Of a stretch of DNA of 64,000 nt, positions 14,017 to 35,877 are shown piece by piece. How positions within the stretch are numbered: the stretch's first letter is position 1; every line of letters begins with the position of its first letter. A program made the position numbers and the translations under genes. Source of the DNA: a virus. The notes below the pieces were generated by a model that searched no databases, was not told the origin of the DNA, and saw only the letters and a program-made list of their open reading frames with translations. The DNA is taken from positions 96,001 to 160,000 of IMG/VR virus record IMGVR_UViG_3300005337_000001, one strand, 5' to 3'.

Positions 14017-14700
14017 CTAGCCCATCGTCGGCACGCCGTACTGGTTTACGTACGACGGCAGAGCCGCGGAATGCCCGCCCAAAGCGTGCTCTTGCGGCGG
14101 CGCCATGCCGAATTCACCAGCCTTCTTTGCGCCCTTCGCCGCCAGCATTCCGGCTCCCAGCACGCCTGCGCCGATGGCTGCCTTACCTAGCAAGCCAGGG
14201 CCTGGGATGGCGCTCACCACCGGCTTCAAGAGCTTCTGAGCTCCACTGACCAGCGCGTTAGGTGCCTTGTTCACCGCGCCGAGCGCTGAGCCAAGCATGC
14301 CTCCGATCCCCGCGGTCTTGGCCAAGACCCGACCGGCTTCTTCGCCGATGGCAGCTGCGGCTTTGTCGAACAAGCTCATGTCACCGGGTATGTCGCTGTC
14401 GGAACGCTCACCCTGGTAAAGCATCGATCCCATCGGATCGAGCGGCACGCCGCCGCGCAGCGCCGCATTCATCGGCGCGTTGCGGTTGGCCTCCTCGAAG
14501 CGCTGGACGTTGTGCTTCAGCTCCGCTTTGGCAACGCCGGCGTCAGCGCTACGGCTCATGCCGCGCGCAAGCAGCAGCCCGCCTACCAGCGCAGCCAGGG
14601 GTAGTCCGCCCTTCATCGGCGACCACTTGGCCTGCGCTTCGGCGACTTTCTCCATGTCGCCCGTGCCCATGTACGCGGCCAAAACCGTGTGCAAGCTCAT
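14017..14700 (-). CDS. putative internal head protein with glycine-zipper segments
   Basis: KVAE/KAAA/KTAG motifs; LPLAALVGGLLLA and GAGVLGAGMLAA segments. Confidence 0.6.
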   Translation of the reverse strand: MSLHTVLAAYMGTGDMEKVAEAQAKWSPMKGGLPLAALVGGLLLARGMSRSADAGVAKAELKHNVQRFEEANRNAPMNAALRGGVPLDPMGSMLYQGERSDSDIPGDMSLFDKAAAAIGEEAGRVLAKTAGIGGMLGSALGAVNKAPNALVSGAQKLLKPVVSAIPGPGLLGKAAIGAGVLGAGMLAAKGAKKAGEFGMAPPQEHALGGHSAALPSYVNQYGVPTMG

Positions 14701-14712
14701 ACCCAGAGGATA

Positions 14713-15360
14713 CTACTTCGGCGGCGGCGTCGGAACAGGGGTCCGCACCGTGACTGGAGTCTGCCGGCGCGCGCCGAGCGGAAGCGGGTCGGACAGAATG
14801 GGGCTGCCGGTACCGGGCACATTCACGCCTGCCTTGGGCAACACACCTACCAAGAAGCCAGCCAGATTGGCCTGCGTCTCACGGAGCTCGGCAATCTCCC
14901 GGCTCTGTTCGGTGAGGCGCTTGTCCTGCTCGTCGAGACGCGTGTCCTTGGAGGTGCTCAAGGTCACCAGCGCTTTCACCTGGCGCTGCAGCTCGAGGTA
15001 CTGCTGCACGACAGCCCAACCAGCGGCCAAGACCGGCACCAGAATAGCCAGCGGGATGCCGACCTTCAGGCCCTTAGCCTGCACAGTGAGCACACCAGGG
15101 CGCATCGAAGACTTGGGCGTGTCGTTGGCGAGCTCGACCTTGGGCGTCGCTGCCGCCTTGGCCACAGCATCGAGCTGGCGCTGCACCTCCGCTGCCTTGT
15201 AGCGCTCGAGCTCGGCCTCTGCGTCCTCACGCGCCATTCGCTCGTCGTTCATCAGACGCAGCGCTGCCGTAGCGCGGGACTCAGCGGCGTCTATCGCAGC
15301 GACCCCTTCCAGGTCGTCAGAGCTTTGGCTCTTGGGGCGCGGGGGCAGTGGCTTCTGCAC
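14713..15360 (-). CDS. single-pass membrane coiled-coil protein (holin/spanin-like candidate)
   Basis: TM VGIPLAILVPVLAAGWAVV between two coiled coils; Pro-rich tail. Confidence 0.45.
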   Translation of the reverse strand: MQKPLPPRPKSQSSDDLEGVAAIDAAESRATAALRLMNDERMAREDAEAELERYKAAEVQRQLDAVAKAAATPKVELANDTPKSSMRPGVLTVQAKGLKVGIPLAILVPVLAAGWAVVQQYLELQRQVKALVTLSTSKDTRLDEQDKRLTEQSREIAELRETQANLAGFLVGVLPKAGVNVPGTGSPILSDPLPLGARRQTPVTVRTPVPTPPPK

Positions 15361-15375
15361 AACCCCGGTAGAGTA

Positions 15376-15762
15376 TCAGCCGAAGAGCCGTACTCGAACC
15401 ACGCCGTCAGTGGTGCGCACTAGCGAGATCTCCGTGATGCTCGTGGCCGGCGACGGGTTCGTGTACAGGATGAGCCCGCCGGGCTTCAGCTCGATGCCGT
15501 CGGCCGACCCGTTGAACTTCACGAGGATGGAATCTGCAGCAGGGTCGGCTTCGTACTCGATGATCGCCACCTTGACGCCGGGCGTGTCGATGGAGCCGAA
15601 CGGCACTGCCGTGGTACCTGAACCGACGAGGCTGAGCCTCGAGTCGACGACCTGCGTGTACTGTCCGGAGAAGCCGAACTGCACCGGCACCGGCTGTTGC
15701 CCCTCGTCTGGGGGAAACTGCACGGTGCCTTGCACGATGATCGGGTTCGTAGAAGCTGACAT
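15376..15762 (-). CDS. putative tail/virion structural protein
   Basis: 128 aa beta-rich, directly after the tube gene. Confidence 0.6.
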   Translation of the reverse strand: MSASTNPIIVQGTVQFPPDEGQQPVPVQFGFSGQYTQVVDSRLSLVGSGTTAVPFGSIDTPGVKVAIIEYEADPAADSILVKFNGSADGIELKPGGLILYTNPSPATSITEISLVRTTDGVVRVRLFG

Positions 15763-15776
15763 GTAGCGCCCTCAGA

Positions 15777-16541: not shown

Positions 16542-16568
16542 CTTGCTGTTGCTCCTTCTCTCAGAATA

Positions 16569-16868
16569 TCACGGCGTCTGCGTCTGCTTGCCGCCCAAGA
16601 TCTCATCCCACTTCTTCGTGCTCACGCCTTTGGGCGGCGGGGGCTCGGCGACCTTGAACTTCCCACCGAGCTTCACGTAGTACTCGAGCGGGGCTTCTGG
16701 GCTGTACGTCGCCGCCAGCTTCAGGAGCTCGGGGTCTTCAGCCGCGCCGGCGCGCGCGAGGTTCGCGAGCTGCACAGCAGAAACGGCCGGAGCCGAGGCA
16801 GCCTTCTCTTGCAAAAGCTGCTCGGCTCGAACGCGGCCCACGGCCGCTATGAACGGCGCGCGGTCCAT
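16569..16868 (-). CDS. small virion-associated protein
   Basis: 99 aa between sheath and tube; KAAS, KLAA motifs. Confidence 0.65.
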   Translation of the reverse strand: MDRAPFIAAVGRVRAEQLLQEKAASAPAVSAVQLANLARAGAAEDPELLKLAATYSPEAPLEYYVKLGGKFKVAEPPPPKGVSTKKWDEILGGKQTQTP

Positions 16869-19800
16869 TAGATCACCAGGGTGACGCGGATGTAGTTGCA
16901 GGGGAAGGGCGGGTCGATCAACACGTCGACCAGCACCGTATCGGGCGCGTCCTCGTCCTGGATGATGTTGTTCAGGTTGAAGCCGACGAGCACGCCGACC
17001 TCGACCAGGTACCCGCCGACGCCACCGATGACGGTGCCGAGCTGGTCCAGGAAGGCCTGGGTGATGTTGAACCGACCGATGAAGTTCTTCAGCGAACGGC
17101 GCAGGAACTTGGCCGTGAAGTCGACCACTTTCGTGATCGAGTCCGTGCGGGTCTCCACCGAGGTGAGGTCGGTGGTGAGCGCCATACGGCTGATGAGCGG
17201 TGCCGATGGCGCGTCTTGCACGATGATGTACGTGCCGCCTGCCGCCATGATGTTCATCTGCGACTCGGAGAAGAAGTCGTTGCTTCCGAGCACGCGGGTG
17301 AACCCAGCCATCGGGAAGTTCGTGAACGACTGCTGGGGCGGTTGCTGCCCGATCATGCCCGCGATGGCCGCGTTCATGTAGAAGCCGTTGACGATCTGTT
17401 CGATGCCCTCGATGGTGGCCGCAGCCTGGTCCGGCGCCGTGTGCCAGAAGCGGCGGTCGCCGAAGCTCTGGCTGAGCGCCTGGTAGGTCTCGGCAATCTT
17501 GGCCTTGTCGGGCGCGCCCTCGGACGTGACCAGGGCCGCGCCGCGTACGCGAACGGCAAAGGCCTCGCTGATGAGCTGGCTTGGCAGCGGCGGGGTGTTG
17601 AGTGCCGTCGTCGCATAGTAGCCGTCGTCATTGTCGCCGGCGTTGAACGACGTGCGGATGGTGACGACCGAGCCACTGATGCCAGCCACCGAGTAGCGCT
17701 TGGCGTCGCTCGCGATGTCGATGAACACCCCCGACGTGGCCAAGATGGTGCCGACGGGGCTCACACCCTTGGCCAACAGCAGAGCGCTCAGGTTGGGGAT
17801 ACCGGTGTCGAAGGTCAGGCCGGACGAGCCGGTCGTGTTGCCGTCGGCGCCGGAAGCCACCAACGTGTCGAGCATGTTGGCCGGCTGCTCACTGTTGAAC
17901 AGCGTGATGCGCTCGCCCTTCTGAGCAGGTTCGCTCATGAAGTCGGTGTGGGTCTTGAAGATCTGCGCGACGGTCTGGTCGTGCGTGAGCGGCGCCAGCG
18001 CGTAGACCTCGAAGGCTTCGAGCAATTCAGCGGCGCGCGTGAAGGCCTCGGGCGTGCCGAACGGCGCATCCGCGCTCACTGCGTCGATGCCCAAGCCCGT
18101 GATCTGCACGCCGGGGGCGTTGACCAGGGCGAAGAACATACCGAGCGCCAGCGGGTTCTGCGTGGTGATGGGAGCCATCACCGACTCGAGCTGGGTCTGG
18201 CTGTCGATGCGAATGAGCGAGGCCTGGTCGGCCAGAGCCGACAGGTCCTTGCGGATGGCCGTGTACGACAGGTACACCGGCGCGCGGCCCTGCGACGGGT
18301 GAATCGCAGCGCCCGTGGTGTCGCGCAGCAGATTGTTCTTCAGCGTCGCCGTCTTGTTGGCGTCGACCACCAAGCTCGGCACCGGCCGGTCAGAGCCGAG
18401 ACCCGTCAGGTTCTTGGCGATGATGTACCAGTACCGGCCCGCGTTGAGCGTGATGGTCTTCTGCTCGCTCATCTTCAGGATGGAGACCTGCCCACCTGGG
18501 GCGACCTGACTGATGATGCCGGCGGACACACCATCGACGATGAGCTCGTCGCCGGGCTCCGCGTGGCCGAGGGCGCCGTACGCGCGCGTGTCGGCGACCA
18601 AACCGAGAGTCGTGAGCGCAGTGCCGCTCTTGATCCAGATGAAGGCGTCGGCGCCCGTGAGGCTGTGCGTAAAACGCAGGAAGTTGGTGCTGAGCGAAGC
18701 CGTGAGGCGTCCGCCTGCAGCCGTACCCATCACCGCGTTGATCTCGGAGAGCACCGCCGCAGCGTTGGCGATACCAGACGAGAAGGTGATGGTCTGCAGC
18801 TGCTGACCATCGCTGATCTCGATGGTCTTGCCGGCGAGGTCGCCCGGGTAGGATAGCGCCGTGATGTTGACGTTGCCCGTCACGACCGCCGCAGTGCTGA
18901 CCGCCGTGAAGTCGTAACCGAGGAACTTCATGAGCGGCGAGAAGTTGTCGCCGTTGCCATCGTCGGTCACTTCGATGGACTGGCCGACGTCGGTCTCGTT
19001 CGTGGTGAAACCGAGCGTAGTGTTGGCGGTACCGACCTTGATGACGAGCTTCGAGTCAGCGCCACCGTTGTCGTCGAGCAATTGCAAGAAGTTGGTAGTA
19101 GGCGTCAGCGAAGCAGTGAGCCCCGTGGTAGACGAGTTGACGCGAGCTACGACCAGTGAGGGCGTCGTGTCGCCCACCTGGAACGTGACCGTCTGGTCAG
19201 CACCATCGTCTACCGAAATGACGAGAGTCTTGGCCGTGAGATCGCCAGGCAGCGTGAGCGTGGTGACGTCGACGGTACCGACCAGGACAGCCGCGTCATC
19301 GACTACGCCGTTGCGAAGGAAGGCCTCCGTACGCAGCTCTTCGATGAAGTTGTTCGCTGCCATCGCGAGGAACGCGCGCACGCTGTTCGACTCGATGACG
19401 AGCTCTTCGATGTTGCCGCGAGGGTCCGGAAAGTTGGTCGCCGGGATGGGCTCCTCGAGCTGCGAGTAGCTGTCGACACCCGTCGCCGTACGCGCTGCAC
19501 CGAAGCCGAAGGCAGAGAGCACTGCGGGCGAGCTCGTACCGATGATCTGCAGCGTCTGAAATTCACCGACGCCAACGGTGCGCAGGCGCCACACCGTGGA
19601 GCTCAGCACCTCAGCCTTCGACGACGTAACGCCAGCAGCGGCGAGCGCCTTGTTGATCGCAGTCACCACCGACGCGGGCGTGAGCCCGGTCGTAGTCGGA
19701 TCGGCGAAGAGAACGGTGACGTTCGGTCCGTGATTTGTCGAGAAGATGAGCTGCAAGCCGTCGAGCCCGGTGTAGACGGGCGGGCTGCCCGTAGCTGCCT

Positions 19801-20002
19801 TCGCGTCGAAGAACGCGGGCAGGTTGATGAGCGCGTCACCGTTCAATACCGACGTGCCGCTACCATCGGGGACCAAAAGGTCGACGACTTGGCGAGCCAC
19901 ACCGATGATGCACGGCACCAGCGTAGGGGTAACGACCGACGGCGTCGTCGTACGGATGACTTGAATTACTTCTACGCCGGGGCGGGGCAGCTGAGCGGCC
20001 AT
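16868..20002 (-). CDS. contractile tail sheath protein
   Basis: N-terminal RPGVEV..IIG; C-terminal ALTTD...SITKVVDFTAKFLRRSLKNFIGRFNIT...DAPDTVLVDVLIDPPFPCNYIRVTLVI is a typical sheath ending; 1044 aa. Confidence 0.9.
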   Translation of the reverse strand: MAAQLPRPGVEVIQVIRTTTPSVVTPTLVPCIIGVARQVVDLLVPDGSGTSVLNGDALINLPAFFDAKAATGSPPVYTGLDGLQLIFSTNHGPNVTVLFADPTTTGLTPASVVTAINKALAAAGVTSSKAEVLSSTVWRLRTVGVGEFQTLQIIGTSSPAVLSAFGFGAARTATGVDSYSQLEEPIPATNFPDPRGNIEELVIESNSVRAFLAMAANNFIEELRTEAFLRNGVVDDAAVLVGTVDVTTLTLPGDLTAKTLVISVDDGADQTVTFQVGDTTPSLVVARVNSSTTGLTASLTPTTNFLQLLDDNGGADSKLVIKVGTANTTLGFTTNETDVGQSIEVTDDGNGDNFSPLMKFLGYDFTAVSTAAVVTGNVNITALSYPGDLAGKTIEISDGQQLQTITFSSGIANAAAVLSEINAVMGTAAGGRLTASLSTNFLRFTHSLTGADAFIWIKSGTALTTLGLVADTRAYGALGHAEPGDELIVDGVSAGIISQVAPGGQVSILKMSEQKTITLNAGRYWYIIAKNLTGLGSDRPVPSLVVDANKTATLKNNLLRDTTGAAIHPSQGRAPVYLSYTAIRKDLSALADQASLIRIDSQTQLESVMAPITTQNPLALGMFFALVNAPGVQITGLGIDAVSADAPFGTPEAFTRAAELLEAFEVYALAPLTHDQTVAQIFKTHTDFMSEPAQKGERITLFNSEQPANMLDTLVASGADGNTTGSSGLTFDTGIPNLSALLLAKGVSPVGTILATSGVFIDIASDAKRYSVAGISGSVVTIRTSFNAGDNDDGYYATTALNTPPLPSQLISEAFAVRVRGAALVTSEGAPDKAKIAETYQALSQSFGDRRFWHTAPDQAAATIEGIEQIVNGFYMNAAIAGMIGQQPPQQSFTNFPMAGFTRVLGSNDFFSESQMNIMAAGGTYIIVQDAPSAPLISRMALTTDLTSVETRTDSITKVVDFTAKFLRRSLKNFIGRFNITQAFLDQLGTVIGGVGGYLVEVGVLVGFNLNNIIQDEDAPDTVLVDVLIDPPFPCNYIRVTLVI

Positions 20003-20018
20003 GTACTGGCTCCTTCCT

Positions 20019-20987
20019 TCAAACCTTCGTCTTGATAGGCGGTGACGGTTTCGATTCTTCCACGGCGCATTCGGCTATGGGAATAGCGCGTCCTCCCATG
20101 GAAGGTGGGCGAAGCCCTGGTCGAAACGGGTGAATGGTGCGCACGCGCACTTGGCGCGCAGGATCGAGTGGGTGTGTCGCGTAAGTCGGCGCCGCCGGCA
20201 GTAATCCAGCAGGATCTGGCGAGCGCCCACGAGCATCCGATGCCAGCGGATCAAAGGCAGGCGGACCGTCGACACAGAAATGAAGCGGCAGCTCGACGCC
20301 GTTGTGGCTCATTGCCGGACCGCCAGTTTGCAGCTCACGCGTCTTCAACAGCTGGGTGCGAATCTGTAGTTCAATGGACTGCACGATGTGCTGGTTCAAC
20401 GGCGTGTACTGACTCATGCGCGGGAACTGGAATGGCGATGAAACAACCGTGGCGTACCAGCCTTCAGCGTTATCACCAGCAACGATGCCTTCCGCCGGTG
20501 ATGGCGAAGAGATTTGCGGCTGCCGTCCCACTTCGAAGAACAAGTTCGAACCGATGAGCTGCTGACGCAAAAGCCAGAGGTGCTCGGCTACGACGAAGGC
20601 AATCTTGTCGCACTCAAGCGTGACACGCGACACGCAGTTGATGCTCATTACACCGGGGATGAGCACGCCCTTCGTCTTCTGGCCAGTGTCGAACTGGAAG
20701 GCCAGCATGTCGTCCTGGCCAAGCGAATAGAACTGCACCGGCCCGCGCGTGAACGAGATGGCGGGGCGCGCGCCGATGGTGTCGCTGTTGATCGCACCCT
20801 CGCCGACGATGAAGATTTCCGTACGGTCGTTGTCCGGCGACCAGTGATAGCTACCGGGCGGAGCTGCCGCAAAGAGACCCTGCACGAAAGCCACGTAGAG
20901 CATACGCAGCTGTGTGAGCGGGTCGTCTTTGAAACTACTCTGCGGAAACTGCCCGTGAGGGTTGACTCTTGTAGGCTTCGTGGGCAC
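20019..20987 (-). CDS. putative tail completion/terminator-type neck protein
   Basis: Directly upstream of the sheath; RPAISFTRG, SINCVSR..ECDKIA layout. Confidence 0.55.
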   Translation of the reverse strand: MPTKPTRVNPHGQFPQSSFKDDPLTQLRMLYVAFVQGLFAAAPPGSYHWSPDNDRTEIFIVGEGAINSDTIGARPAISFTRGPVQFYSLGQDDMLAFQFDTGQKTKGVLIPGVMSINCVSRVTLECDKIAFVVAEHLWLLRQQLIGSNLFFEVGRQPQISSPSPAEGIVAGDNAEGWYATVVSSPFQFPRMSQYTPLNQHIVQSIELQIRTQLLKTRELQTGGPAMSHNGVELPLHFCVDGPPAFDPLASDARGRSPDPAGLLPAAPTYATHPLDPARQVRVRTIHPFRPGLRPPSMGGRAIPIAECAVEESKPSPPIKTKV

Positions 20988-21345
20988 GACCGAGCTCCTT
21001 GCTCGCGCGCGAGTGGTACTGCTGCATGGCCAAGGCCAGGCCGCCGCCCATGAACGGAGCTACCTTGCGCATGGTAGGCGCCGCCGACGGACTGAGGCCA
21101 AGGCCGTGCGTGATCCCGCGTCCAGCAAGTGCGCCGGCCGCTGTGCCAACACCGAACGCCGCTGCCGGCGCCATCACCGCTTTGAGCGCATGAAGGATGG
21201 GGTGCTTGATGTCTCCAGGCTGGTTCTTCACCTCTTCCTGCGGCACCTCACCCGAGTCGGGCGGCGGCTCCGGCAGGTTGGCGAGCTTGAGCAACTCGCG
21301 CGCCATCGGGGCGCGGTCGTAGGTGAAGGGGAGAGCCAAGCTCAT
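20935..21345 (-). CDS. small glycine-zipper protein
   Basis: Start reset to ATG 21345 (ATGA overlap); AFGVGTAAGALAG, FMGGGLALAM. Confidence 0.65.
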   Translation of the reverse strand: MSLALPFTYDRAPMARELLKLANLPEPPPDSGEVPQEEVKNQPGDIKHPILHALKAVMAPAAAFGVGTAAGALAGRGITHGLGLSPSAAPTMRKVAPFMGGGLALAMQQYHSRASKELGRAHEAYKSQPSRAVSAE

Positions 21346-22247
21346 GGTTCTTTCGGGTACGACGTCGGGTACAACGCAAAGATACCAGGGATTTCCTCGT
21401 CCTCGAAGTTGGCCAGGTTGAAGGGGTTTGTGTAGTTGCGCGCCGGCGTGATGAAGAGGTTCTTGAGCGCAGAGGAGAAGCTCACTGGGATAGAGAACTC
21501 GATGTCCTTCGTCTCGATGGCATGAACCTGCACCTCTTGATGAACCGCCGCCCGGCTGTGCTCGGTCTGCGTCTGGCCAACGACCTTCCAACGCAGGTTC
21601 TCCGCCTCGATCACCAGGTCGCCGGGTTTGAGGATGGGGTAGAAGCCCAACCGCAACGTCGTGTTGTCCTGCTGCGTCTCGCCCGTGTTCAAGTGCTGTG
21701 TGCTCTTCGAGCTCGGATCGATCTGAATGAACGTCTCGATGGGATGCAGATAGCCGCGCACAAAGCCGGTGCAAAAACAGGTGATGCAGCCGCTCTTTGT
21801 CACCTGGTTCAGCGTTTCATTCCAGCAATCTGGGCAGCGCTGGCCAAAAGTGCGTCGTGGCAGCACGATGCAGCGGCGCCCAGCGAACTCCCGCATCAGC
21901 AGGCGGATATGCCGCCGAAGCTCAGTAGCGATGATGTCGGCCTCGGGCTCATGTGCCACAGGCCCGAAGTCCTTCACGTCGCCCGAGCTCTTCTCACGCA
22001 CACGGATGAGGTACTGGTACTCGCGCCAGCGATGCGCGATCTGAATCACGTTGTCGACGAACGTGTACTGGTCCTGAAAGGGCGGCGTGAGCGTGTCCCA
22101 CGGGCCTTCCGGCGACTCGGACCGCAACACCTGAAACTCGAAGTCGAAGATGTCGCGTGTCGTCGGCGCGACGCGCCAAGTCACCTCGTGGAAGTCGATG
22201 TCCAGCGAGATGACTCGGAGCTTGTCGAGCTCGATCGGTACCGGCAT
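21342..22247 (-). CDS. neck/head-closure protein with Zn ribbon
   Basis: FN3-like N-terminal part; CPDC...CITCFCTGFVRGY; PILKPGDLVIE..RWKV. Confidence 0.65.
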   Translation of the reverse strand: MPVPIELDKLRVISLDIDFHEVTWRVAPTTRDIFDFEFQVLRSESPEGPWDTLTPPFQDQYTFVDNVIQIAHRWREYQYLIRVREKSSGDVKDFGPVAHEPEADIIATELRRHIRLLMREFAGRRCIVLPRRTFGQRCPDCWNETLNQVTKSGCITCFCTGFVRGYLHPIETFIQIDPSSKSTQHLNTGETQQDNTTLRLGFYPILKPGDLVIEAENLRWKVVGQTQTEHSRAAVHQEVQVHAIETKDIEFSIPVSFSSALKNLFITPARNYTNPFNLANFEDEEIPGIFALYPTSYPKEP

Positions 22248-23404
22248 TACTGCCTGGGTTGCGTGTTCGACAGCATCTTGCCCGCAACCAGGCCGCCAGC
22301 GCCGGCGACGCCTGCCGCTGCGAGCGGGTTCTTCTGCGCGAAGTTCTTGGCGACGTTGCCGAACGAGCTGGCAACCTGACCCAGGCCGCCGCTCTTGTAG
22401 GCCGACGTAGCCAGGCTCTTGCCTGCGCTGAGCGCATTGCCGACGGCAGGCAGCGCAGCTTTACCAGCGTTCAGCGCGGTACCGAGGATGCCTGCGGTCT
22501 TGTCGGTCTTTTCCAGGCCGGGGAACTTCTTCGCCACCGCAGCACGCACCTTGCTCTTCTCCGAATCAGAGCCGTGCATGCCGACCAAGCCCAGCGCCGA
22601 GCGCGCGTGCTTGGCGTCGGGGATTGGGTACTTGCCGGTGTCACCAGGGCCGTCTGCCTTAGGCTCGGCGAAGTTCTTGTCGGCGATGTGCTCACGCGCA
22701 TTCAACGTGAGTGGCGCCGCCGTCTTCGCGAGGAAGCGACCGGCTTCGATGATGGCAGCGACCTTGGCGGCCGATTGCTTCACCTCTTCCTCTTTCGGCA
22801 GTGCTTTCGGTTTCGCCTTCGGAGGTTGCGGAGGCGCACCTTCACCGCCGCCAGCGTGCGCCTGCTCGAGCAGCTTGATGGCCTCGTCCTCGGTCGCTTC
22901 ATGAGCGGCATCTTCACCGCCACCGACAGCAGCTTCTTCCTGCTGCGCGCCCTCGAGCTCAGCGATAGCCTTCTCTTCCTTGGCCTCCGGAGAAGCCGCC
23001 GGCTCGCCGGCGCCGCCGTTCTGAGCCATGACCAGGTCTAGATCCAGCATACGCTTCTGCAGCTGGATGGCGTCGCGCTTGGCCCAGGTGTCGCTGGGCT
23101 GCGGCTTCATCGCTCGCTCCTGCTCACGCAGCTGCTGATCTTCCATGTCGAGCTGCAGCAGCGCCTTCTCGAGCTCCACCGCCTTAGCGAATAGCGGAGT
23201 GCCCGTGTACTTGCCGAGCCAGGTGTTGTCGCTGCCGCCAGGACCGCAGGCGTCCATGCCGTAGGCAAGCTTGCAGGTCTCGTCGCCGCTTGCGAGCTTC
23301 TGTAGCTCCTCGAGCGGGAACTGCTTGAGCTTGTCGACGAGCTGGCGCGAAGCCGTCTTCTCGGTGGCAGAGCGGTAAGAAACTTCCAGGAATTTGTCGA
23401 GCAT
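22247..23404 (-). CDS. internal head protein (K-x-A sites, DUF6582-like domain, glycine-zipper tail)
   Basis: KTAS/KLAS/KTAA/KTAG; REHIADKNFA..KYPIPDAKHARSAL..KVRAAVAKKFPGL. Confidence 0.65.
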   Translation of the reverse strand: MLDKFLEVSYRSATEKTASRQLVDKLKQFPLEELQKLASGDETCKLAYGMDACGPGGSDNTWLGKYTGTPLFAKAVELEKALLQLDMEDQQLREQERAMKPQPSDTWAKRDAIQLQKRMLDLDLVMAQNGGAGEPAASPEAKEEKAIAELEGAQQEEAAVGGGEDAAHEATEDEAIKLLEQAHAGGGEGAPPQPPKAKPKALPKEEEVKQSAAKVAAIIEAGRFLAKTAAPLTLNAREHIADKNFAEPKADGPGDTGKYPIPDAKHARSALGLVGMHGSDSEKSKVRAAVAKKFPGLEKTDKTAGILGTALNAGKAALPAVGNALSAGKSLATSAYKSGGLGQVASSFGNVAKNFAQKNPLAAAGVAGAGGLVAGKMLSNTQPRQ

Positions 23405-27848: not shown

Positions 27849-28964
27849 TCAGAACTGAGTGACTTGCGGGAACTTCAAGCCCGCATCGACACGGTTGTTC
27901 ACCGCGCCCAGCTGATCCTCGGTCTTCGGGATGAAGCTCGAGAGCAAGCCGTCGGCGTTCGTGGTCGGGTTCGCGTCAGCCGAGTAGAGCTCGAGCTTGC
28001 GGACCGCCGCGATGTTGATCACCGACATGCCGATGTCCTCCCATGCCTGGAAGGTGATCATGTTCGCGATCTTGTCGATGTAGAACTTCGTGTTGTTGAG
28101 CACGTAGAACTTGCCGAAGAACTCCGGCTTCGTGAACACGTAGATGTTGCCGGGGCGCAGGATGTCCGTCTTGATCGTACGGATGTACGCACGGCCCAAG
28201 ATGGTGTTGTACTTGTAGCCGTCGACCGTCGTCTCCGACTGCACCCTGTCGCCGAAGTCCTCGACCGTCCACTGCAGCAGGTCGTCCCAGTCGACCTCGG
28301 TGCAGAGCAGGCGCTCCGACCGCAAGCGGTTGCCGTCGAGCATCTTGAACAGGTTCACGAAGTCGGGGCGCTGTACGGGCAGCACCTCGGCCGTGTTCGT
28401 GCTCGCGTTGCGCGCCAGCTCGCCCTTGCGAACCGAGAACTCCACCGTGGTGCCGATGGTCGACGCAGACAGGGCCGTGGCGGTACCGCCGTTGGCTTCC
28501 GTCTGCAGCGCTTGCACCGCCGCCTCGATGTGGATCGTGAACTCGCGGTCCTCGATCTCTTGGATGTCCTTCACCGAGTTCTCCTCGATGATCTTCGTGA
28601 TGGGCATCTCGTACGCCATCAACTCCTGCTCCGTCTTCTGGAACATCTCGGAGCTGATGGTGAAGAACGCCACCTCCGCGCGCGAGCCGCGGATGAATCG
28701 TGCGTCTGGGGTGCCACGAAAGGTGATCGCCATCGCGCGGCTCTGAGGCTCCACGTCGATGATCTTCACCAGGGTATCGTGGTTGACCGAGCGCTGGCAG
28801 TCTGCACGCGTGACCTGCTCCGGCGGAACGACTTTCCGAGCGAAGCTCACCTCACGGAGGCGGTCACGAATGTAAGAACCGCTGTACTCGGCGATCTTTT
28901 CCTTGCCCTCGGAGCTGTTCAGCTTCGATGCAAAGAGCTCGTTGATAACGCTCGCCGGAACCAT
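27849..28964 (-). CDS. major capsid protein (HK97 fold)
   Basis: 371 aa, strong SD AAGGAG, own terminator, follows protease/scaffold/decoration genes; IRDRLREVSFARKVVPP, KDIQEIEDREF. Confidence 0.85.
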   Translation of the reverse strand: MVPASVINELFASKLNSSEGKEKIAEYSGSYIRDRLREVSFARKVVPPEQVTRADCQRSVNHDTLVKIIDVEPQSRAMAITFRGTPDARFIRGSRAEVAFFTISSEMFQKTEQELMAYEMPITKIIEENSVKDIQEIEDREFTIHIEAAVQALQTEANGGTATALSASTIGTTVEFSVRKGELARNASTNTAEVLPVQRPDFVNLFKMLDGNRLRSERLLCTEVDWDDLLQWTVEDFGDRVQSETTVDGYKYNTILGRAYIRTIKTDILRPGNIYVFTKPEFFGKFYVLNNTKFYIDKIANMITFQAWEDIGMSVINIAAVRKLELYSADANPTTNADGLLSSFIPKTEDQLGAVNNRVDAGLKFPQVTQF

Positions 28965-29002
28965 GTTCGTTTCTCCTTCTTCCTGTAGGGGTGGGTCGAG
29001 CG

Positions 29003-29527: not shown

Positions 29528-29545
29528 GACTTCTTTCTACTCCTT

Positions 29546-29899
29546 TCAGCTCAGGAGAAACCGCTCGAGGTCACTTGACCCTGCGGCGCCCGAGAGCTCG
29601 TCGGACACGTGTGCACGTTTGCCCATGTCCGGGCCCACGAGCTCCACCGCTTTTTCCGTGACGTCGAGATTCAGAGAGCCTGCGGCGGCCTGCTTCTGAA
29701 GCTCGTCTGCAACCTCGTCGACCGTCCCGGACTTGATGCCCTTGTCGATCATCGAAGTTGCAATCTTTTCGACGCGCTGCCGCGACGCATTCTCGAGGAA
29801 CGCATCGCGGTAGAGGTCACGCTCACTTGCGAGCTTGCGGAGGGTCTCGGGGACTTCCGCGAGGACCTCGCGTTTCATTGCTGCACTCAGCTTGTCCAT
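29546..29899 (-). CDS. scaffold-like small helical protein
   Basis: 117 aa; KLAS/KIAT/KQAA; C-terminal SDLERFLLS resembles a capsid-binding tail. Confidence 0.5.
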   Translation of the reverse strand: MDKLSAAMKREVLAEVPETLRKLASERDLYRDAFLENASRQRVEKIATSMIDKGIKSGTVDEVADELQKQAAAGSLNLDVTEKAVELVGPDMGKRAHVSDELSGAAGSSDLERFLLS

Positions 29900-29916
29900 C
29901 GTTTCTGTCCTCCGAC

Positions 29917-31332
29917 TTACGTGCCAGAGCCGGCGACACCGCCGACGGGGGGAGCTGTATAGGTGCCCATGCCACCCATCGACTCCTTTTTCTTGTCCTT
30001 GACGTCTTTGTCTTTCGCCGCCGCTTCAGCCATCTTTTCCAAGACGGCACGAGCAGCTGCGCTCCTGGTCGACGCCGAGATCTTCACCCCGGCTTGACCG
30101 GTGTGGACCAGGGTCTTCTGCAGCACGTTGTCGTGCGCAGCGGAGAGTGCGGGCTCGGAGAGCACCGCCTTGAGTTGCGGCTTCACCTGGGCCTTGGCGT
30201 CGCCCTTGGTGTAGTTGCGCGCGGCGTCGTTCGACGCGATGAGCCCGGTCGGGCCCTGGGGCTTGCCGCCCGCCGGCGCGCCGCCGTCTTCACCCGAAGC
30301 CGACGTGTCGGGCGGCACCGCAGCGCCGGCCGAAATCTTCGCGGGGTTGATGGCGTCCTCGGCGGTCTTCTCCACCGACGCACCCGCCTGCTTCACCGCG
30401 CCGAGCATGTAGTCGACCAAGCGAGGGTCGACAGCCGGCGTGGCTGCGGAAGCTTCCTTCGCGACAGCGACCGGCGCGATGACCTTCTCCGAGGCCTCCT
30501 TGCGCAGGAGCGCGATGGGCGCGGTGTACTGCGGTTGAGCCGCAGAGACCTTCTGCTTGCCGGCCACCGGCTTGTTGGTCTCGAGCGCCGTCGCCGGACC
30601 AGCAGGCTGATTGCCAGGATTCACCGTGCCGGTGCTCTTCGGCACTTGATGAGCCGGCGTCGCCGCACCCTGCTGACCAGGCGCGACGGTGTTCTTACCG
30701 CCAGGGCTCTCGAGCACCTTCAGCGGGTTCGGGCCGGTACCGGGGCCGATCTCGGCTGCGGTCTTCGCCGCCGCTGCCTCGACCTCTTCATCGATGAACG
30801 AGTTGCCGAGCACGTACTCGACAGCGGTCGCGAGCTTCTCGACGTAGTCGGTGGGGATGGAATCGACTTCGCTGTTGCGGCCGGCGGACGCCGTCTTTTC
30901 GACGGTTGCGGCCGGTGCGTCACCTTGCGAAGCAAGCTGACGAGCTGCTTCGAGCGTGACGGCGGTATGGTCGGCAGCACCAGCTGCAGCGGCCTTTACC
31001 ATTTCGTGAATCGTGAATCGGGGAGTGGCTGCGGGCATTGAAACCTCACTGTGCGCAATCTTCGGAGGGAGAAAACCTTGTTGGTCGGGAGTGGCGCTCT
31101 TCTGCGCCGACGAGCCCGCGTCGGAATTGATCGGCGACCCATTGTTGACGCGCGAGTAGTTGGTTCGCGGTGCCATCCCCTTCGGACCGGTCTGCCCTGG
31201 TGCGGGCTTGTTGCCGACGGCGAGGCCAGGAATGGGAGCAGACGAAGCCGTGTCCACCGACGAGTCGGGGAATGGCACCGATGTAGCTTCCGCTACCTTC
31301 GCTGCTGGCTGTCGTTGCTCCCATACCTTCAT
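29917..31332 (-). CDS. internal head/scaffold protein, low complexity, many K-x-A sites
   Basis: 471 aa A/P/G-rich; possible internal start ATG 31038 (SD GAGG). Confidence 0.65.
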   Translation of the reverse strand: MKVWEQRQPAAKVAEATSVPFPDSSVDTASSAPIPGLAVGNKPAPGQTGPKGMAPRTNYSRVNNGSPINSDAGSSAQKSATPDQQGFLPPKIAHSEVSMPAATPRFTIHEMVKAAAAGAADHTAVTLEAARQLASQGDAPAATVEKTASAGRNSEVDSIPTDYVEKLATAVEYVLGNSFIDEEVEAAAAKTAAEIGPGTGPNPLKVLESPGGKNTVAPGQQGAATPAHQVPKSTGTVNPGNQPAGPATALETNKPVAGKQKVSAAQPQYTAPIALLRKEASEKVIAPVAVAKEASAATPAVDPRLVDYMLGAVKQAGASVEKTAEDAINPAKISAGAAVPPDTSASGEDGGAPAGGKPQGPTGLIASNDAARNYTKGDAKAQVKPQLKAVLSEPALSAAHDNVLQKTLVHTGQAGVKISASTRSAAARAVLEKMAEAAAKDKDVKDKKKESMGGMGTYTAPPVGGVAGSGT

Positions 31333-31354
31333 CTCACAGGTTGCTGATCTGAGT

Positions 31355-32203
31355 TTACGCCGAGGGCCAGGTCACCTGGAAGCCAGCGGCTTCGCAGATC
31401 TCCAACGCGCGCACGTGCAGACCAGTCTGCAGGTCCGGCGCCGACGCGATCTTCGTGCTCTCGCTGAGGCCGAGCACGTAGGCAGCGTTCACCTTGTTGT
31501 AGGCGATGTCCGGGCTCACGCCCGCTTCTTTGAGCAGCTCGATGGCGTGCCACGCCGCCTGCTCATCGAAGTTCGGCGTCGTGGTTCCCGACGCGGCTGC
31601 TGAAGCGGTCTTCGCCGTCTGGAACGCGGTAACGAGAGCGGAGATCTTGGCGGAGGCAGAAGCTTCCTTCTCCTCGCCTTCCTTCTTCTCCTTACCCTCT
31701 TTGCCGTCCTTGCCTTCGCCATCCTTCTTACCGAACGGAGGAGCCATGTCGCCCTTCTCGGCGATCTTGTTGAGCTCGGCAACGAACGAGTGCGCCATGA
31801 TGCGACCCATCGCGTCGGCTTCGGCGACCTTCTCGGCAGCGGCCCTCTTCTGGAGGAACTCGGACTCGGCAGCAGCCAGCTTCGCAGCGGCAGCTTCCTT
31901 CTCCTTTTCCTTCTCTTCTTTCTCCTTGCCCTCTTTGCCTTCAGGCTTCTTGCCTTCGCCTTCGCCGTCCTTCTTGCCGAAGTTCGGTGGGAACTCGGCC
32001 GCCTTCATCTCCATGGCGACCTTCCACAACTCTTCGACCTGCACGTCGTTCAGCGACTTGATGTCGATGCCCTGTTCTTGGCAGAGGCCGTTGAAGTACT
32101 CGACCTGGGCTTGCTTCTCCAGATCCTCCGGCGTCGCACTCGCGACCTTGGTCGTACCGAACACTTCACCAAGCGTGCTGCTCATGTCGTTGGCTCCACT
32201 CAT
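31355..32203 (-). CDS. scaffold-like protein with duplicated charged module
   Basis: SD AGGAG; PP(N)FGKKDGEG...KE-rich x2; seven or more K-x-A sites. Confidence 0.6.
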   Translation of the reverse strand: MSGANDMSSTLGEVFGTTKVASATPEDLEKQAQVEYFNGLCQEQGIDIKSLNDVQVEELWKVAMEMKAAEFPPNFGKKDGEGEGKKPEGKEGKEKEEKEKEKEAAAAKLAAAESEFLQKRAAAEKVAEADAMGRIMAHSFVAELNKIAEKGDMAPPFGKKDGEGKDGKEGKEKKEGEEKEASASAKISALVTAFQTAKTASAAASGTTTPNFDEQAAWHAIELLKEAGVSPDIAYNKVNAAYVLGLSESTKIASAPDLQTGLHVRALEICEAAGFQVTWPSA

Positions 32204-32225
32204 GATCTGTCTCCTGTTGGATGGT

Positions 32226-33950
32226 TCATCGCGTGGTCACCAAGGGGAGTGCCCTCTGCACGCCGGCGTGCGCCTGATCGCCCGATAGCTTTACCACCCC
32301 TTGCGATGAATACCCAGCAGGCAATTCGTTCATGAACGCGCCCGACAGGTACTTGAACGACAAGGGAGTGAAGAGCTCCTCTGCCGACACGCTCGCAAAC
32401 TTGCGCAGCATGACGTCGTCGGCTGATGTAGCCGCTTCAATCATGTCCTGTGCGTTGGCGACGAGTTGCATGAGGTTCGCTCGGTAGCTGTTGTAGGCAG
32501 ACCCAATCTTACGGAGAAGATCCGAGGGATGGGAAGAAGCCCTCTTCTCAGATTTGGGTGGAACGCCTGCAATCACCAACACCCGGCGCTCGATGACCGG
32601 GCCAAACGCCGAGCGCTCGCCCATGAACGGGGCGAGCAGCTGGGCCAGCACAGGGCTGAAATCCTGCTCCTTCAGCGATTCGTCGCCTGTCTCATCCATC
32701 TTCGGGAAGCCTTGACCCATCGCCTCGAGCTGGTCGGCCAGGTCGCCCTTCCCCATGCTCACCAAAGTGATGCGCTGAAACTCACGCGGGCGAAGAACCA
32801 TCCCCAAGCCAGCGGTAGTCGACAGTGCTTTGCCAAGGCCGGATTGACCCAGTATCTCCTGCAGTTCTTTAGGCAAGTCGGCTTCGCGATCGGTTAGCAG
32901 CGGCACTGCTTTACCTGCCAGTTGGTTCGGCACGACCTTCTTGGTCATCTCCGCTTGCTTGGCGCGCCCGCGCGCGCGCACCTCGTCCTCCTGCAGATAG
33001 CGCGCTGTGACCTGGTCCTTACCCGCTGTCTTCTCGAGCACGTCCTCGCCACTCGCCATCTTCTCGGCCACTTCAGCTGAACCCATGAAGCCGTACGTGC
33101 GCTTGCCATCGTCGGCGATCTTCAGCATCGCCTTGGCAATCTTGTCGGCGCCGATGAAGACGTAGCTGATGTCGAAGAAGCGAGGGAAGTCGTTGTCGAC
33201 CCAGACCTTGCGCCCGTCGGGCAAGATTCGATTCATCTGCGTGCGGCCGTACTCCGAGTACTCCTTGCGCGTCACCTGCACACCGCGGATGGGGTGCTTC
33301 TTATGCACCTCCAAGATCGCTGCGCCGGGACTCGTGTGCTTCTTCGGGTCGTACGTGTCCCACGCCTCTTGGTAACGCTTGCGGTCGAGCGTGATCGAAC
33401 ACGTGTCGAAGGGCACCTTCGTACCCATGCTGACGTCTGGGTAACCGCCCATCTTCAACTTGTCCCAGATGCTCTCACCGCCGTTGGCTAGGCAGGTGTC
33501 ACGATCGAGACGCGTCACGAGCTCGACCCGCTTCATGTGCGGGTTCCAGGCTGCGAGCTCGACGACGCCGAGTTTCTTGTTGGGGTCCTTGTTGCGATGA
33601 TGCGGAAAAACGCAGGCGCTGTAGAACGTGGGGAAGCCGTAGGCCCAGCCCTTGGCCTTCACCATGTCGTAAACGGGCACGCCCTTCCAGTCGTCGGGCG
33701 CATGCACCAACGAGGCTTCAGAGAAGCGGTCGCCGTTGATGTTCGATCCGTAGTACTCGCCGGCGCCCATGGCGTTGACGAGCACGTACTGCGAGTCGCT
33801 GCGCGGCTCGAGCTGCGCGATGTACGACGACACCTCCGGCAGCAGGCTGGCTGACGCTACCTTCTCGAAGTAAGAGTCAGCTGGCCCGAAGAGCGGGACT
33901 GCGGCCGGGCCGAACTCTTCGCTCCCCTGGAAGAGGCTGACCTTGATCAT
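32226..33950 (-). CDS. prohead maturation protease (assemblin/HK97-type serine protease)
   Basis: VLVNAMGA..SNINGDRF, FPHHRNKDP (His), DVSMG (Ser), RFFDISYVFIGAD; sits upstream of scaffold and MCP. Confidence 0.75.
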   Translation of the reverse strand: MIKVSLFQGSEEFGPAAVPLFGPADSYFEKVASASLLPEVSSYIAQLEPRSDSQYVLVNAMGAGEYYGSNINGDRFSEASLVHAPDDWKGVPVYDMVKAKGWAYGFPTFYSACVFPHHRNKDPNKKLGVVELAAWNPHMKRVELVTRLDRDTCLANGGESIWDKLKMGGYPDVSMGTKVPFDTCSITLDRKRYQEAWDTYDPKKHTSPGAAILEVHKKHPIRGVQVTRKEYSEYGRTQMNRILPDGRKVWVDNDFPRFFDISYVFIGADKIAKAMLKIADDGKRTYGFMGSAEVAEKMASGEDVLEKTAGKDQVTARYLQEDEVRARGRAKQAEMTKKVVPNQLAGKAVPLLTDREADLPKELQEILGQSGLGKALSTTAGLGMVLRPREFQRITLVSMGKGDLADQLEAMGQGFPKMDETGDESLKEQDFSPVLAQLLAPFMGERSAFGPVIERRVLVIAGVPPKSEKRASSHPSDLLRKIGSAYNSYRANLMQLVANAQDMIEAATSADDVMLRKFASVSAEELFTPLSFKYLSGAFMNELPAGYSSQGVVKLSGDQAHAGVQRALPLVTTR

Positions 33951-34555
33951 CCGTAGTAATTTTGCGCCTCTTCCACACGGTCCGGCGACGTCTCACCTTG
34001 CTCATTCATGCGCGAGATGGTCTTCGTCTGGCGCAGGAGCTGCGGCTTCTTGCCCTCGCCGCCCCCGCCGAAGCCCTTCATGAAGCCACCGAGCGCGGCC
34101 TCGGTCAGAGGGCCCTGCTTAGGAGGCTGCCGATTACGCTGCGCGCCGATCGAAACGTTGCCGCGCTCTTCGATGGCGCCATTCATGGCCTGTCGCATGA
34201 GCGTGCCAGCAACCACCGGTTCCTTCGTAAACTCCGGCGAGAAGCGGCGCAGCGAAGTGAACATGCGATTGAAGCCAGCCGGGTCGCTCTGCAGATGCTC
34301 GTGCAAGTCGGGGTTGGCTTCCAGCATGCTCTGGAAATCACGCGTCTTGGTAGCCGCGTCGTAGAGCTTACCGGCGGCGCCGACGAGACCGGCGAATGCT
34401 GCAGCGCCGACGCCGGCCATCGCTGCGTTGCCGGCTTGTTCCCCCATCCGACTGAGCGCGGGCCCGGCCTTGCCGGCCATGCCCTTCAGGTTCGGCATCC
34501 CGAAGGCGCGCTTCTCGGACAGAAACTCATCGACAGGGTTCTTGGCCATGATCAC
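33947..34555 (-). CDS. glycine-zipper head protein
   Basis: DEFLSEKRAFG then AMAGVGAAAFAGLVGAAG. Confidence 0.65.
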   Translation of the reverse strand: MIMAKNPVDEFLSEKRAFGMPNLKGMAGKAGPALSRMGEQAGNAAMAGVGAAAFAGLVGAAGKLYDAATKTRDFQSMLEANPDLHEHLQSDPAGFNRMFTSLRRFSPEFTKEPVVAGTLMRQAMNGAIEERGNVSIGAQRNRQPPKQGPLTEAALGGFMKGFGGGGEGKKPQLLRQTKTISRMNEQGETSPDRVEEAQNYYG

Positions 34556-35877
34556 TGTCCCGTCATCGTACGATAGCGGCGGTTGTTGTACTCGGCAGTG
34601 CCCGGCACCACCGCCTTGGCAGCGCCAAGACCAGCTTGGACGATGGGCCTGTCGGTGACTGACTGCAGCGCCGCATTGCCGGCAAGCGCGCCACCGACGA
34701 GCGCCGTACCCTTCAGGCCCTTGGAAATCGTAGGGGCCAGACGCTTGGCGTCTTTGGCGCCCACGAGAAAATGGGCAATAGCAGGCGAAGCCGCGTCGAT
34801 GCCACCGCTCGCGGCGTCGATGCCCTTCTTGGCAGCACCGAGGAGCCCGCCCGAAGAAGCCTGCTTGAGCAAGTTTTCCGACTGCTCCACGCCTTCGATG
34901 AGCTCCTGATGAAGCACCCGCATGTTGGCCAACTTGTTCAGGGCGTCGATGAACTCCCCGTACGAAGTGACCAACGGGTGCTCCGCGTTCACGTCGCCGG
35001 CCGAAGCCTGCTTCGTGAGTGACTCACCGAGCGCATCGAGGCTCGGGAACACACCTTCGCGCTGCAGGCGCGGCGTCATCAGGCGGAAGGCGATCTTCAC
35101 GTACAACGGGTCTTCCGACACCACCGCCCAAGACTTGACCACGTCGGCCAGGCTCACACCCTCGAGCGCCGCCTGTTTCACGTGGCCATACAGCTGGGTG
35201 CCAGCCTCGGCGTAGTCGACCTCGAGCTTGTCGATTTCGTACGCAACTTCGTCGACGCCGGCGGCGAGCTTGCTGCGCACTTCGACCAGCGGCTGCAGCG
35301 GTTCGGCGAACGCGATGTGCGATGGCTCACCGTGGTTGAAGAGCGCCCAGAGCTCGTCTTCGTACGGGGACGCGTGCTTGGGCAGCGACGGCAGCTTCTG
35401 CGGCTTGGGCAGACCTTCGACCGCCTCGAGCCCCTCAGCCTCCGTGGCCGACGCGGTCTTCTCGGTACCGCCATAGGAGCCAACTGCCTGCGCGTGCTTG
35501 TGCACTTCCTTGGGGTCGCGGGTGTAGTCGAGCGTGCCTCGGTCGTACACTGAACCACCACCGCCGTCGTTCAGGTCTTGAAGTACCTGCGACGGGTCAG
35601 CCGGGCCTTTGTCGAAATGAACCACCCGGTGATTGGCTTCCTTGCGGAACTCACGCAGGTAAGCGTCGCCGTTCGTGAACTCGACCACTCGCTTTACCTG
35701 CTCGGGGGAGAGCCGCTCGCCGCGGACTACATCCACGATGGCGTCATGAAGCGACGCTACTTTGCCCTCGCACCAGTTGGCTGCCGCTTGTTTTCCGAGC
35801 ACTTCGAGATGCTCCCCAGAAACCGGGCGCGCATCGCGCTGTTGAAGAACCGTCTGGATGGGGGAGTCGCCGCTCAT
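34552..35877 (-). CDS. internal head protein with many K-x-A sites and glycine-zipper tail
   Basis: LSPEQVKRVVEFTN domain; KTAS, KQAA, KQAS x2; GTALVGGALAG. Confidence 0.7.
   Translation of the reverse strand: MSGDSPIQTVLQQRDARPVSGEHLEVLGKQAAANWCEGKVASLHDAIVDVVRGERLSPEQVKRVVEFTNGDAYLREFRKEANHRVVHFDKGPADPSQVLQDLNDGGGGSVYDRGTLDYTRDPKEVHKHAQAVGSYGGTEKTASATEAEGLEAVEGLPKPQKLPSLPKHASPYEDELWALFNHGEPSHIAFAEPLQPLVEVRSKLAAGVDEVAYEIDKLEVDYAEAGTQLYGHVKQAALEGVSLADVVKSWAVVSEDPLYVKIAFRLMTPRLQREGVFPSLDALGESLTKQASAGDVNAEHPLVTSYGEFIDALNKLANMRVLHQELIEGVEQSENLLKQASSGGLLGAAKKGIDAASGGIDAASPAIAHFLVGAKDAKRLAPTISKGLKGTALVGGALAGNAALQSVTDRPIVQAGLGAAKAVVPGTAEYNNRRYRTMTGQ

Follow-up and report, generated by a model that had tools for sequence, protein, structure and literature searches.

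Genes of the particle block and the seven zipper-bearing proteins

We analysed a 64,000-nucleotide (nt) stretch of virus DNA, genome positions 96001-160000 of IMG/VR record IMGVR_UViG_3300005337_000001 (hereafter the window, to which positions refer unless marked as genome positions), for a set of seven proteins that carry glycine-zipper segments and for the Lys-x-Ala (K-x-A) motif found in them and in their neighbours. The original prediction, made from the letters alone, had described the segments as a cationic family placed right after K-x-A sites. All seven open reading frames that it named, each by its stop-codon end, are present on the minus strand, and the strings that it quoted are found in them: KTAG followed by GIGG... 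at amino acid (aa) 128 of 14017-14700, KTAG followed by ILG... at aa 302 of 22247-23404, KTAS at aa 485 of 23414-25210, KRAF at aa 15 of 33947-34555, and KQAS followed by SGG... at aa 338 of 34552-35877. Its observation is partly confirmed and its interpretation, as detailed below, partly supported.

The source record is a complete phage genome of 195,580 bp with direct terminal repeats and a GC content of ~62%, and the minus-strand genes of the window make up the particle (structural) block of a myophage (Table 1). Its nearest cultured relative is Salmonella phage Arash, with 28% identity between the capsid proteins; Arash homologues were also found for tube, sheath, protease and RNA polymerase. 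Sequence comparison thus places the source phage as a myophage distantly related to Arash. The head-block genes follow the order 34552, 33947, protease, scaffold-like 31355 and, further on, capsid 27849. The RNA polymerase is encoded in a single frame with Rpb2 domains 3 and 6 ahead of Rpb1 domains 1, 2 and 5, and is probably head cargo that needs passage into the host. Orthologues were compared across ten related contigs of 30-97% identity.

Table 1. Coordinates of zipper-bearing proteins, K-x-A sites and other particle genes in the window.
Feature	Position (nt)	Residues (aa)	Strand	Remarks
Acidic head-block protein	34552-35877	441	-	Five K-[TQ]-A sites
Last site, KQAS	34855-34866	338-341	-	Opens the +7 Gly-rich tail aa 341-441 (nt 34555-34857)
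Zipper	34666-34710	390-404	-	Run scan
Protein just upstream of protease	33947-34555	~200	-	Leader, zipper helix, conserved C-domain
Leader end, KRA|F	34502-34513	15-18	-	Sequence
Zipper	34370-34435	41-62	-	Run scan; most hydrophobic of the set
Protein with very acidic middle	23414-25210	598	-	Two zippers
First zipper	23816-23866	449-465	-	
Second zipper	23687-23755	486-508	-	Starts at KTAS
KTAS site	23747-23758	485-488	-	Site and G-rich helix kept in relatives L005, L006, L007
Protein with basic tail	22247-23404	385	-	K-x-A sites
KTAG site	22490-22501	302-305	-	Opens the +7 tail aa 305-385: amphipathic Gly/Ala/Lys repeats and terminal zipper
Terminal zipper	22280-22330	359-375	-	Run scan
Protein in tail-gene block	14017-14700	227	-	
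Hydrophobic run	14566-14610	31-45	-	
KTAG site	14308-14319	128-131	-	Straight into the GIGG... zipper aa 129-144
Second zipper	14137-14181	174-188	-	Run scan; piece aa 131-194 has charge +7
Small zipper protein	20935-21345	~136	-	
Zippers	21121-21180; 21025-21063	57-76; 96-108	-	
Protein just upstream of portal	57424-58509	361	-	Charge +18, 19% Gly, four zipper runs
Zipper runs	58324-58392; 58225-58272; 58156-58209; 57604-57678		-	Run scan
Prohead (capsid maturation) protease	32226-33950	574	-	Assigned by modelled fold, aa ~33-300 (nt 33051-33854)
Protease K-x-A sites	33852-33863; 33021-33032; 32535-32546	30-33; 307-310; 469-472	-	Sequence
Scaffold-like protein	31355-32203	282	-	Acidic, Lys/Glu-rich; many conserved K-x-A-(S/A) sites
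Low-complexity head-block protein	29917-31332	471	-	Conserved K-x-A-S sites; zipper inserts in relatives
Acidic protein	40149-42386	745	-	About ten conserved K-x-A-(S/A) sites
Major capsid protein	27849-28964		-	K-I-A-E at aa 23-26
Tail sheath	16868-20002		-	Block gene
Large terminase	36640-38550		-	Block gene
Fused beta-beta' RNA polymerase	44307-50696	2129	-	Family-domain matches
Portal protein	55339-57420		-	tblastn to Arash portal gp204 (E 2e-75) and to the Bacillus phage G portal

The K-x-A motif and the maturation protease

The K-x-A-(S/A/G) motif is real: the 233 proteins of the phage contain K[TQ]A[SGA] 33 times, compared with 6.8 +/- 2.6 copies in per-protein shuffles and 2-11 copies for each of eleven permuted or altered control motifs, and 26 of the 33 copies are concentrated in 11 proteins encoded at 14-61 kb of the window. 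The broader pattern K.A[SGA] is found 55 times in the 20-43 kb block (16.4 +/- 3.8 in shuffles). Among orthologues of 30-80% identity, K-x-A sites form conserved islands amid otherwise unalignable linkers, with K and A fixed and x variable. A similar density is seen in Arash, which has a GC content of 53%: gp220 carries seven sites, gp223 six, gp225 five and the protease homologue gp222 three, and a further site lies near the capsid N-terminus (K-E-A-G at aa 27-30). The motif is thus no artefact of high GC content. In the window, the 745-aa protein is probably a heavily processed head protein. The K-I-A-E of the major capsid protein precedes the capsid body and is nearly invariant in relatives (K-L-A-E in one); it is a possible N-terminal propeptide cut site, and ~25 residues may be lost from the capsid protein at maturation.

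The protease was assigned by fold only, because matches to curated protease families (Pfam S77/S78/S80, PHROG) were absent at E <= 0.1 in Pfam and at E <= 0.01 in PHROG, and its sequence profile matched no PDB sequence at E <= 10. An AF2 model of aa 1-306, built from a 59-sequence alignment, reached a pLDDT of 86.6. VIA-align gave Z 10.7 to the varicella-zoster virus (VZV) protease (116 residues aligned, root-mean-square deviation (rmsd) 2.9), Z 10.2 to the pseudorabies virus (PRV) protease and Z 10.0 to T4 gp21 (5jbl; 132/164 residues aligned, rmsd 2.6), and the first unrelated folds, MCE domains, scored only Z <= 6.6; Foldseek E-values for the same model (0.08-0.3) are weak when taken alone. 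As modelled, the protein has the herpesvirus-assemblin/T4 gp21 fold. H118, S174 and H216 are invariant among the 59 sequences (38-66% identity); their catalytic roles are putative, and the His-Ser spacing of 56 is presumably near the T4 value. Homologues of the protease form 2,537 clusters at 50% identity.

Two of the K-x-A sites of the protease itself, aa 30-33 and aa 307-310, lie in low-pLDDT linkers that bracket the fold, and both are kept across the family (K30/A32 in the consensus); the site at aa 469-472 likewise lies in a low-confidence linker. The site consensus, built on 201 sites of 58 homologues, reads (L/M/F)-(E)-K-(T/V/L/I)-A-(S/A/G). Given the enriched motif and a protease fold with K-x-A at both edges, K-x-A is very probably the cleavage site of this protease, and we consider it likely that the motif is cleaved by the head-maturation protease of the phage itself. 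The term "protease-released", used in the original prediction, is hence well supported computationally by a motif that is enriched, conserved, present in the disordered linkers at both ends of the protease fold, abundant in scaffold-like proteins and placed ahead of the capsid body. Herpesvirus assemblins cut (V/L)-x-A|S, and by this analogy the phage enzyme probably cuts directly after the Ala of K-x-A; a cut after the fourth residue, as previously drawn, is probably one residue late.

Many protease homologues (including P0053, P0056, P0112, P0232 and P0254) also carry inteins with Hint or LAGLIDADG domains. They interrupt the protease near residues 66, 116-117, 177 and 185-190, beside the invariant His and Ser. 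Insertion of inteins at active sites is common.

Glycine-zipper segments, their position and their carriers

Segments were defined as runs of 13 or more uncharged residues with at least 70% G/A/L/I/V/M/F/W, three or more Gly and a (G/A/S)xxxGxxx(G/A/S/T) pattern. Across the proteome, 25 runs fit this definition (7.6 +/- 2.7 in per-protein shuffles). The seven named proteins account for 14 of them, all with the pattern and 13-25 residues long, compared with 1.5 +/- 1.2 and a maximum of 6 in 1000 shuffles. When runs were chosen without the pattern, Gly-Gly spacing was enriched at 4 (z 3.5) and 8 (z 2.1), and likewise in 80 runs from relatives. Their sequence thus identifies the runs as true helical glycine zippers in GxxxG register, as had been predicted.

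All-against-all comparison of the zipper pieces gave BLAST E-values above 0.1 for every pair, so that the segments are a compositional class rather than the homologous family originally proposed, which was rejected. Pfam and PHROG scans of the seven zipper proteins and 23 neighbours returned only sub-threshold glycine-zipper matches and one unnamed PHROG domain. The former are DUF883_C (PF19029; E 0.0066, 16.5 bits against a cut-off of 27) in the 385-aa protein and Gly-zipper_YMGG (PF13441; E 0.0099, 16.0 bits in the 361-aa protein, and 22.6 bits, against a cut-off of 28.9). With these families the segments have in common the GxxxGxxxG register, the Gly/Ala/Leu composition and basic flanks, which is resemblance and not membership. 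In the 385-aa protein, a small conserved domain (aa 230-296; phrog_16160, E 2e-6) lies between two K-x-A sites and resembles a separately released module.

In silico cutting of each protein at every K.A[SGAFE] left a strongly basic charge only on the C-terminal pieces with zippers. Those of the 227-aa, 385-aa and 441-aa proteins, following the last K-x-A, each carry +7, and the upstream or carrier pieces range from neutral to -28, which bears out the description "cationic". "Amphipathic" holds for the stretches flanking the zippers and fails for the cores, which are weakly hydrophobic and have an Eisenberg mean hydrophobicity (H) of 0.51-0.70, in the "multimeric membrane" zone, and a low moment (muH) of 0.05-0.2.

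The position right after K-x-A applies to four segments, in the 227-aa, 385-aa, 598-aa and 441-aa proteins, where a conserved site marks the switch from acidic to basic sequence. Site and zipper of the 598-aa and 441-aa proteins are kept in closer relatives, and in orthologues L013-L015 of the 227-aa protein K, A and GIGG are fixed and x is T, S, R or H. The position does not apply to the remaining three proteins. In the ~200-aa protein the zipper begins 24 residues past the site; among 120 homologues, K-x-A lies within the first 40 aa in 113 and a Gly/Ala helix is present in 119, at a median of 19 aa past the site. The ~136-aa protein has no K-x-A adjoining its zippers and bears a conserved N-terminal leader site, K-L-A-N, followed by LPEPPPD. 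The 361-aa protein likewise has only an N-terminal leader site (K-T-S-G; K-E-A-A or K-E-A-L in orthologues) and none beside the zippers. The adjacency also recurs independently in relatives, where zipper inserts stand behind K-x-A sites in orthologues of the scaffold-like and 471-aa proteins. Among protease homologues, the first zipper lies no more than 12 residues past K-x-A-(S/A) in 8-9 of 14 inserted modules, where ~1 is expected, and an InPase enzyme domain follows several of these modules.

Leaders and virion data from Arash bear on packaging. The leader of the ~200-aa protein, N-P-x-x-(D/E)-F-L...K-x-A, is very similar to the N-terminus of the sigma factor of the phage (Sigma70_r3, E 1e-9), and that of the 361-aa protein is of the type F-x-x-E-L-x-K-x-(A/S), a variant of the leader on three proteins encoded outside the window. 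The ~200-aa protein, which probably starts at the ATG of codon 3, corresponds to Arash gp221 by synteny and a weak hhalign match (E 4e-3), and the 441-aa protein is syntenic with gp220 (hhalign E 1e-4, also weak). Arash gp220, gp221 and gp224 have the K-x-A plus zipper architecture seen here. The Arash virion proteome includes the sigma factor gp10, RNA polymerase gp206/gp216, gp220, gp221, gp223 and gp224, and the separate beta and beta' subunits are its most detected proteins (PMC10585845). On this indirect evidence, we lean slightly towards the view that the zipper pieces are packaged in the head. The "coverage" column of the Arash data was not used, being implausible for several entries (2 unique peptides, 92% of a helicase). 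A tblastn search with the 441-aa protein against 50,697 phage records found nothing, and a protein-atlas search with the ~200-aa protein gave weak feature matches only, tape-measure fragments (0.83-0.84) among them, which were not used as evidence.

The three leader-sharing genes are adjacent at genome positions 75082-77215, ~19-21 kb before the window start, and have the common leader F-(L/Q)-D-E-L-(Q/S)-K-I-A; the first also has a Gly-rich run. One product of this region, L030, is a stand-alone, leader-tagged InPase (PF18823, E 5e-39). In the protease homologues P0227, P0237, P0245 and P0254, InPase is part of the protease chain, downstream of the catalytic protein and the zipper modules, and looks like a passenger enzyme moving between carriers.

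Possible fate of the zipper peptides, alternatives and related systems

We tentatively posit a T4-like load-and-clip scheme with a different cleavage rule, in which part of the cargo would be cationic glycine-zipper peptides that stay on the DNA and act on the inner membrane at ejection. The protease would recognise (L/M/F)-(E)-K-x-A followed by S/A/G and probably cut after Ala. Its sites would serve in three places: in short N-terminal leaders that act as T4 capsid-targeting sequences do, in linkers of scaffold or core proteins and, in four proteins, precisely where an acidic carrier gives way to a strongly basic tail (64-111 residues) with Gly/Ala-zipper helices at its core. On maturation, basic glycine-zipper peptides would be freed in the head, or a Gly-rich new N-terminus exposed. 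Since the peptides are cationic, they could be retained on the packaged DNA; they would exit through the tail with or before it, insert as oligomeric helices into the host inner membrane, and help to open or line a passage for DNA, the packaged polymerase and the sigma factor. We infer the cleavage event and its position, head retention, ejection and membrane action; for ejection and for channel formation or membrane remodelling, composition and analogy are the guides. In its fullest form, which we regard as unlikely, the scheme would extend to the whole ~190-kb myophage clade (very large, almost wholly uncultured and including Arash): a Lys-x-Ala|Ser assemblin-like protease would load and later free cationic zipper peptides that are ejected and self-assemble in the inner membrane as a conduit for DNA, the 235-kDa fused RNA polymerase, sigma factor and passenger enzymes, a peptide "ejectosome" of a contractile-tailed phage, primed by cleavage in a manner similar to viral fusion peptides.

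In favour of the scheme stand the motif counts and their conservation, the protease fold with its own sites, the spacing, charge, conservation and recurrence of the zippers, the leaders and Arash virion entries as hints of packaging, and the N4 precedent described below. Several observations speak against it. The zipper cores are far less hydrophobic than the evident membrane helices of the phage (KD19 at most 1.64 versus 2.3-3.1) and sum to +3 to +4 on a Hessa-type scale, and their Pfam glycine-zipper matches all stay below threshold. Only 4 of the 14 runs start at K-x-A (2 by a strict count), with 1-2 expected on composition. In the window, the strict count does not exceed this expectation and the wider one is not far above it; what speaks for adjacency is that it is conserved and that it recurs in relatives. 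The 227-aa protein sits among tail genes, beside what may be a true membrane protein. The tail of the phage is contractile, and we know of no established membrane-channel role of ejected head proteins outside podoviruses. Cleavage is so far unobserved throughout the clade. The Arash paper speaks of neither a protease nor cleavage (PMC10585845), and its supplement holds annotation without peptide data, from which no cleavage can be read. The Arash virion list also comprises 116 proteins, metabolic enzymes among them (PMC10585845), and presence in it is therefore weak evidence.

The zipper tails could instead serve assembly only, as core or scaffold elements of the prohead whose glycine zippers form tight homo-oligomers and whose basic flanks bind DNA or acidic scaffold. 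Cleavage would then dismantle the core, and the peptides would exit or stay inert, as T4 peptides II/VII or adenovirus mu/VII do, with no membrane role. This explanation, which seems to us somewhat unlikely, would account for the genes at 34552 and 33947 being placed as T4 core genes 67 and 68 are, between packaging genes and protease, for the scaffold-like pieces of 5-11 kDa predicted from the carrier proteins, for the marginal hydrophobicity of the zipper cores, and for a strong positive charge that fits DNA binding. It is harder to reconcile with zipper modules that, cargo-like, ride with InPase behind the protease in relatives and occur on leader-tagged non-scaffold proteins, with the runs in the 227-aa tail-block protein, and with a GxxxGxxxG register with Leu/Val/Ile partners, which is reportedly typical of membrane helices. 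A membrane role in the producer cell is also conceivable, in which the segments would anchor particle proteins, such as those of the prohead initiation complex, in the inner membrane until the K-x-A cut frees the finished prohead. T4 proheads assemble on the membrane via gp20/gp40. In the 385-aa, 441-aa and 227-aa proteins the zippers lie near the C-terminus, as in tail anchors, with a weak DUF883_C match, the site falls exactly between soluble part and anchor, and the 361-aa protein is encoded beside the portal gene. Their hydrophobicity appears too low for efficient insertion, however, virions of Arash are reported to contain the counterparts gp221 and gp224, and the ~200-aa and 361-aa proteins have cargo-type leaders in common with sigma factor and InPase, all of which makes such a tether improbable.

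It is more improbable still that the segments are a by-product of composition, that is, Gly/Ala-rich low-complexity linkers of a 62% GC genome in which a Lys at the border of an Ala/Gly run creates K-x-A-small by chance, with no specific function. The lack of homology among the pieces would fit this explanation, as would the ~1-2 chance K-x-A boundaries expected among 14 runs and the sub-threshold Pfam matches. Composition-keeping shuffles fall far short of the observed number of runs, however, and the spacing periodicity is non-random; site and zipper are conserved while x varies, Arash, at 53% GC, shows the same architecture, and zippers recur behind K-x-A in distant protease homologues. It is these conservation and recurrence analyses that largely counter a compositional origin.

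Leaders, propeptides and ejected head proteins are already known, and what is new is the K-x-A rule and the zipper cargo. The earlier statement that the arrangement is not a described system was too strong, as the scheme is a variant of the T4 capsid-targeting-sequence and phiKZ-SPN3US propeptide systems. As in T4 (IPI, IPII, IPIII and Alt, with gp21), common N-terminal leaders are found on unrelated proteins, a prohead protease of the same fold, which also has sites of its own, is predicted to clip them, and the cargo includes basic proteins and enzymes destined for the host. In the papers found, the prohead protease of T4 follows the rule (L/I)-x-E, and that of the phiKZ/SPN3US group the rule (S/A/G)-x-E (PMC5694885, PMC10052503, PMC7411985). 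Unlike T4, the present phage, known from sequence alone, has K-x-A before S/A/G, also at internal sites ahead of C-terminal tails, and cationic glycine-zipper cargo is not known in T4. The phages phiKZ, 201phi2-1 and SPN3US (proteases gp175 and gp245) are likewise large myophages that package RNA polymerase, remove N-terminal propeptides at a short conserved protease motif on many head proteins and eject a mass of proteins (PMC5694885, PMC10052503, PMC7411985). They differ in having Glu rather than Ala at P1 and cargo proteins without detectable sequence relation to those described here; the RNA polymerase of the present phage is one fused beta-beta' chain, and glycine-zipper tails have not been described in that group.

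The herpesvirus assemblins of VZV, PRV, herpes simplex virus (HSV) and human cytomegalovirus (HCMV) include the best structural matches of the protease model; they have Ala and Ser at P1 and P1', process themselves at sites flanking the catalytic domain, and process the scaffold. They belong to animal viruses without leader-tagged cargo, and Lys at P3 is specific to the phage clade. Maturation cleavage also frees or exposes a Gly/Ala-rich hydrophobic peptide, kept inside the particle until entry, in adenovirus protein VI, the nodavirus gamma peptide and class I fusion peptides. The predicted new N-terminus of the 227-aa protein (G-I-G-G...) has a fusion-peptide-like composition; this is analogy only, with no evolutionary link, and phage entry proceeds via the tail.

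The closest functional precedent for the proposed mechanism is provided by gp51 and gp52 of phage N4, which are ejected, form membrane channels and pass the giant virion RNA polymerase, with the membrane activity of gp51 ascribed to hydrophobic helices (PMC13434306). Like DEV gp72/gp73 and T7 gp14/15/16, they are stored in the head, expelled, and inserted into membranes as a conduit for DNA. These podovirus ejection proteins are large folded proteins of short-tailed phages, in contrast to the protease-freed 7-11 kDa peptides predicted here, and the zipper proteins gave no PHROG or Pfam match at E <= 0.01 to ejection or tape-measure proteins. In the literature search, no published link between glycine zippers and phage virions was found.

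The scheme bears on how large myophages pass proteins as large as RNA polymerase across the inner membrane. Should it hold, the K-x-A-small code would predict the head cargo of thousands of uncultured phages from their sequence, a candidate set of short, synthesisable peptides would be at hand for direct membrane-activity tests, Arash would become a cultured model for code and peptides, and phage and herpesvirus proteases would be linked by cleavage-site chemistry (Ala|Ser) besides fold. Should the zippers only pack the core, the finding would still define the maturation code of a major phage clade.

Three further genes were noted. L027 (genome positions 82607-86209, ~10-13 kb before the window start) encodes a 1200-aa protein with three long glycine-zipper runs (aa 47-119, 729-757); it may be a tape-measure-like or ejected protein and, having no PHROG match, was not called a tape measure. 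Directly upstream of the 227-aa zipper protein, 14713-15360 (minus strand) encodes a 215-aa protein that has a single, strongly hydrophobic helix at its centre (KD19 2.3), then coiled-coil-like sequence and finally a Pro-rich end, and that may be a true membrane protein, for example spanin-like, within the tail block. The plus-strand gene at 35858-36643 (261 aa), without family match, lies between the terminase and the head-core genes and is kept in all relatives (30-69% identity).

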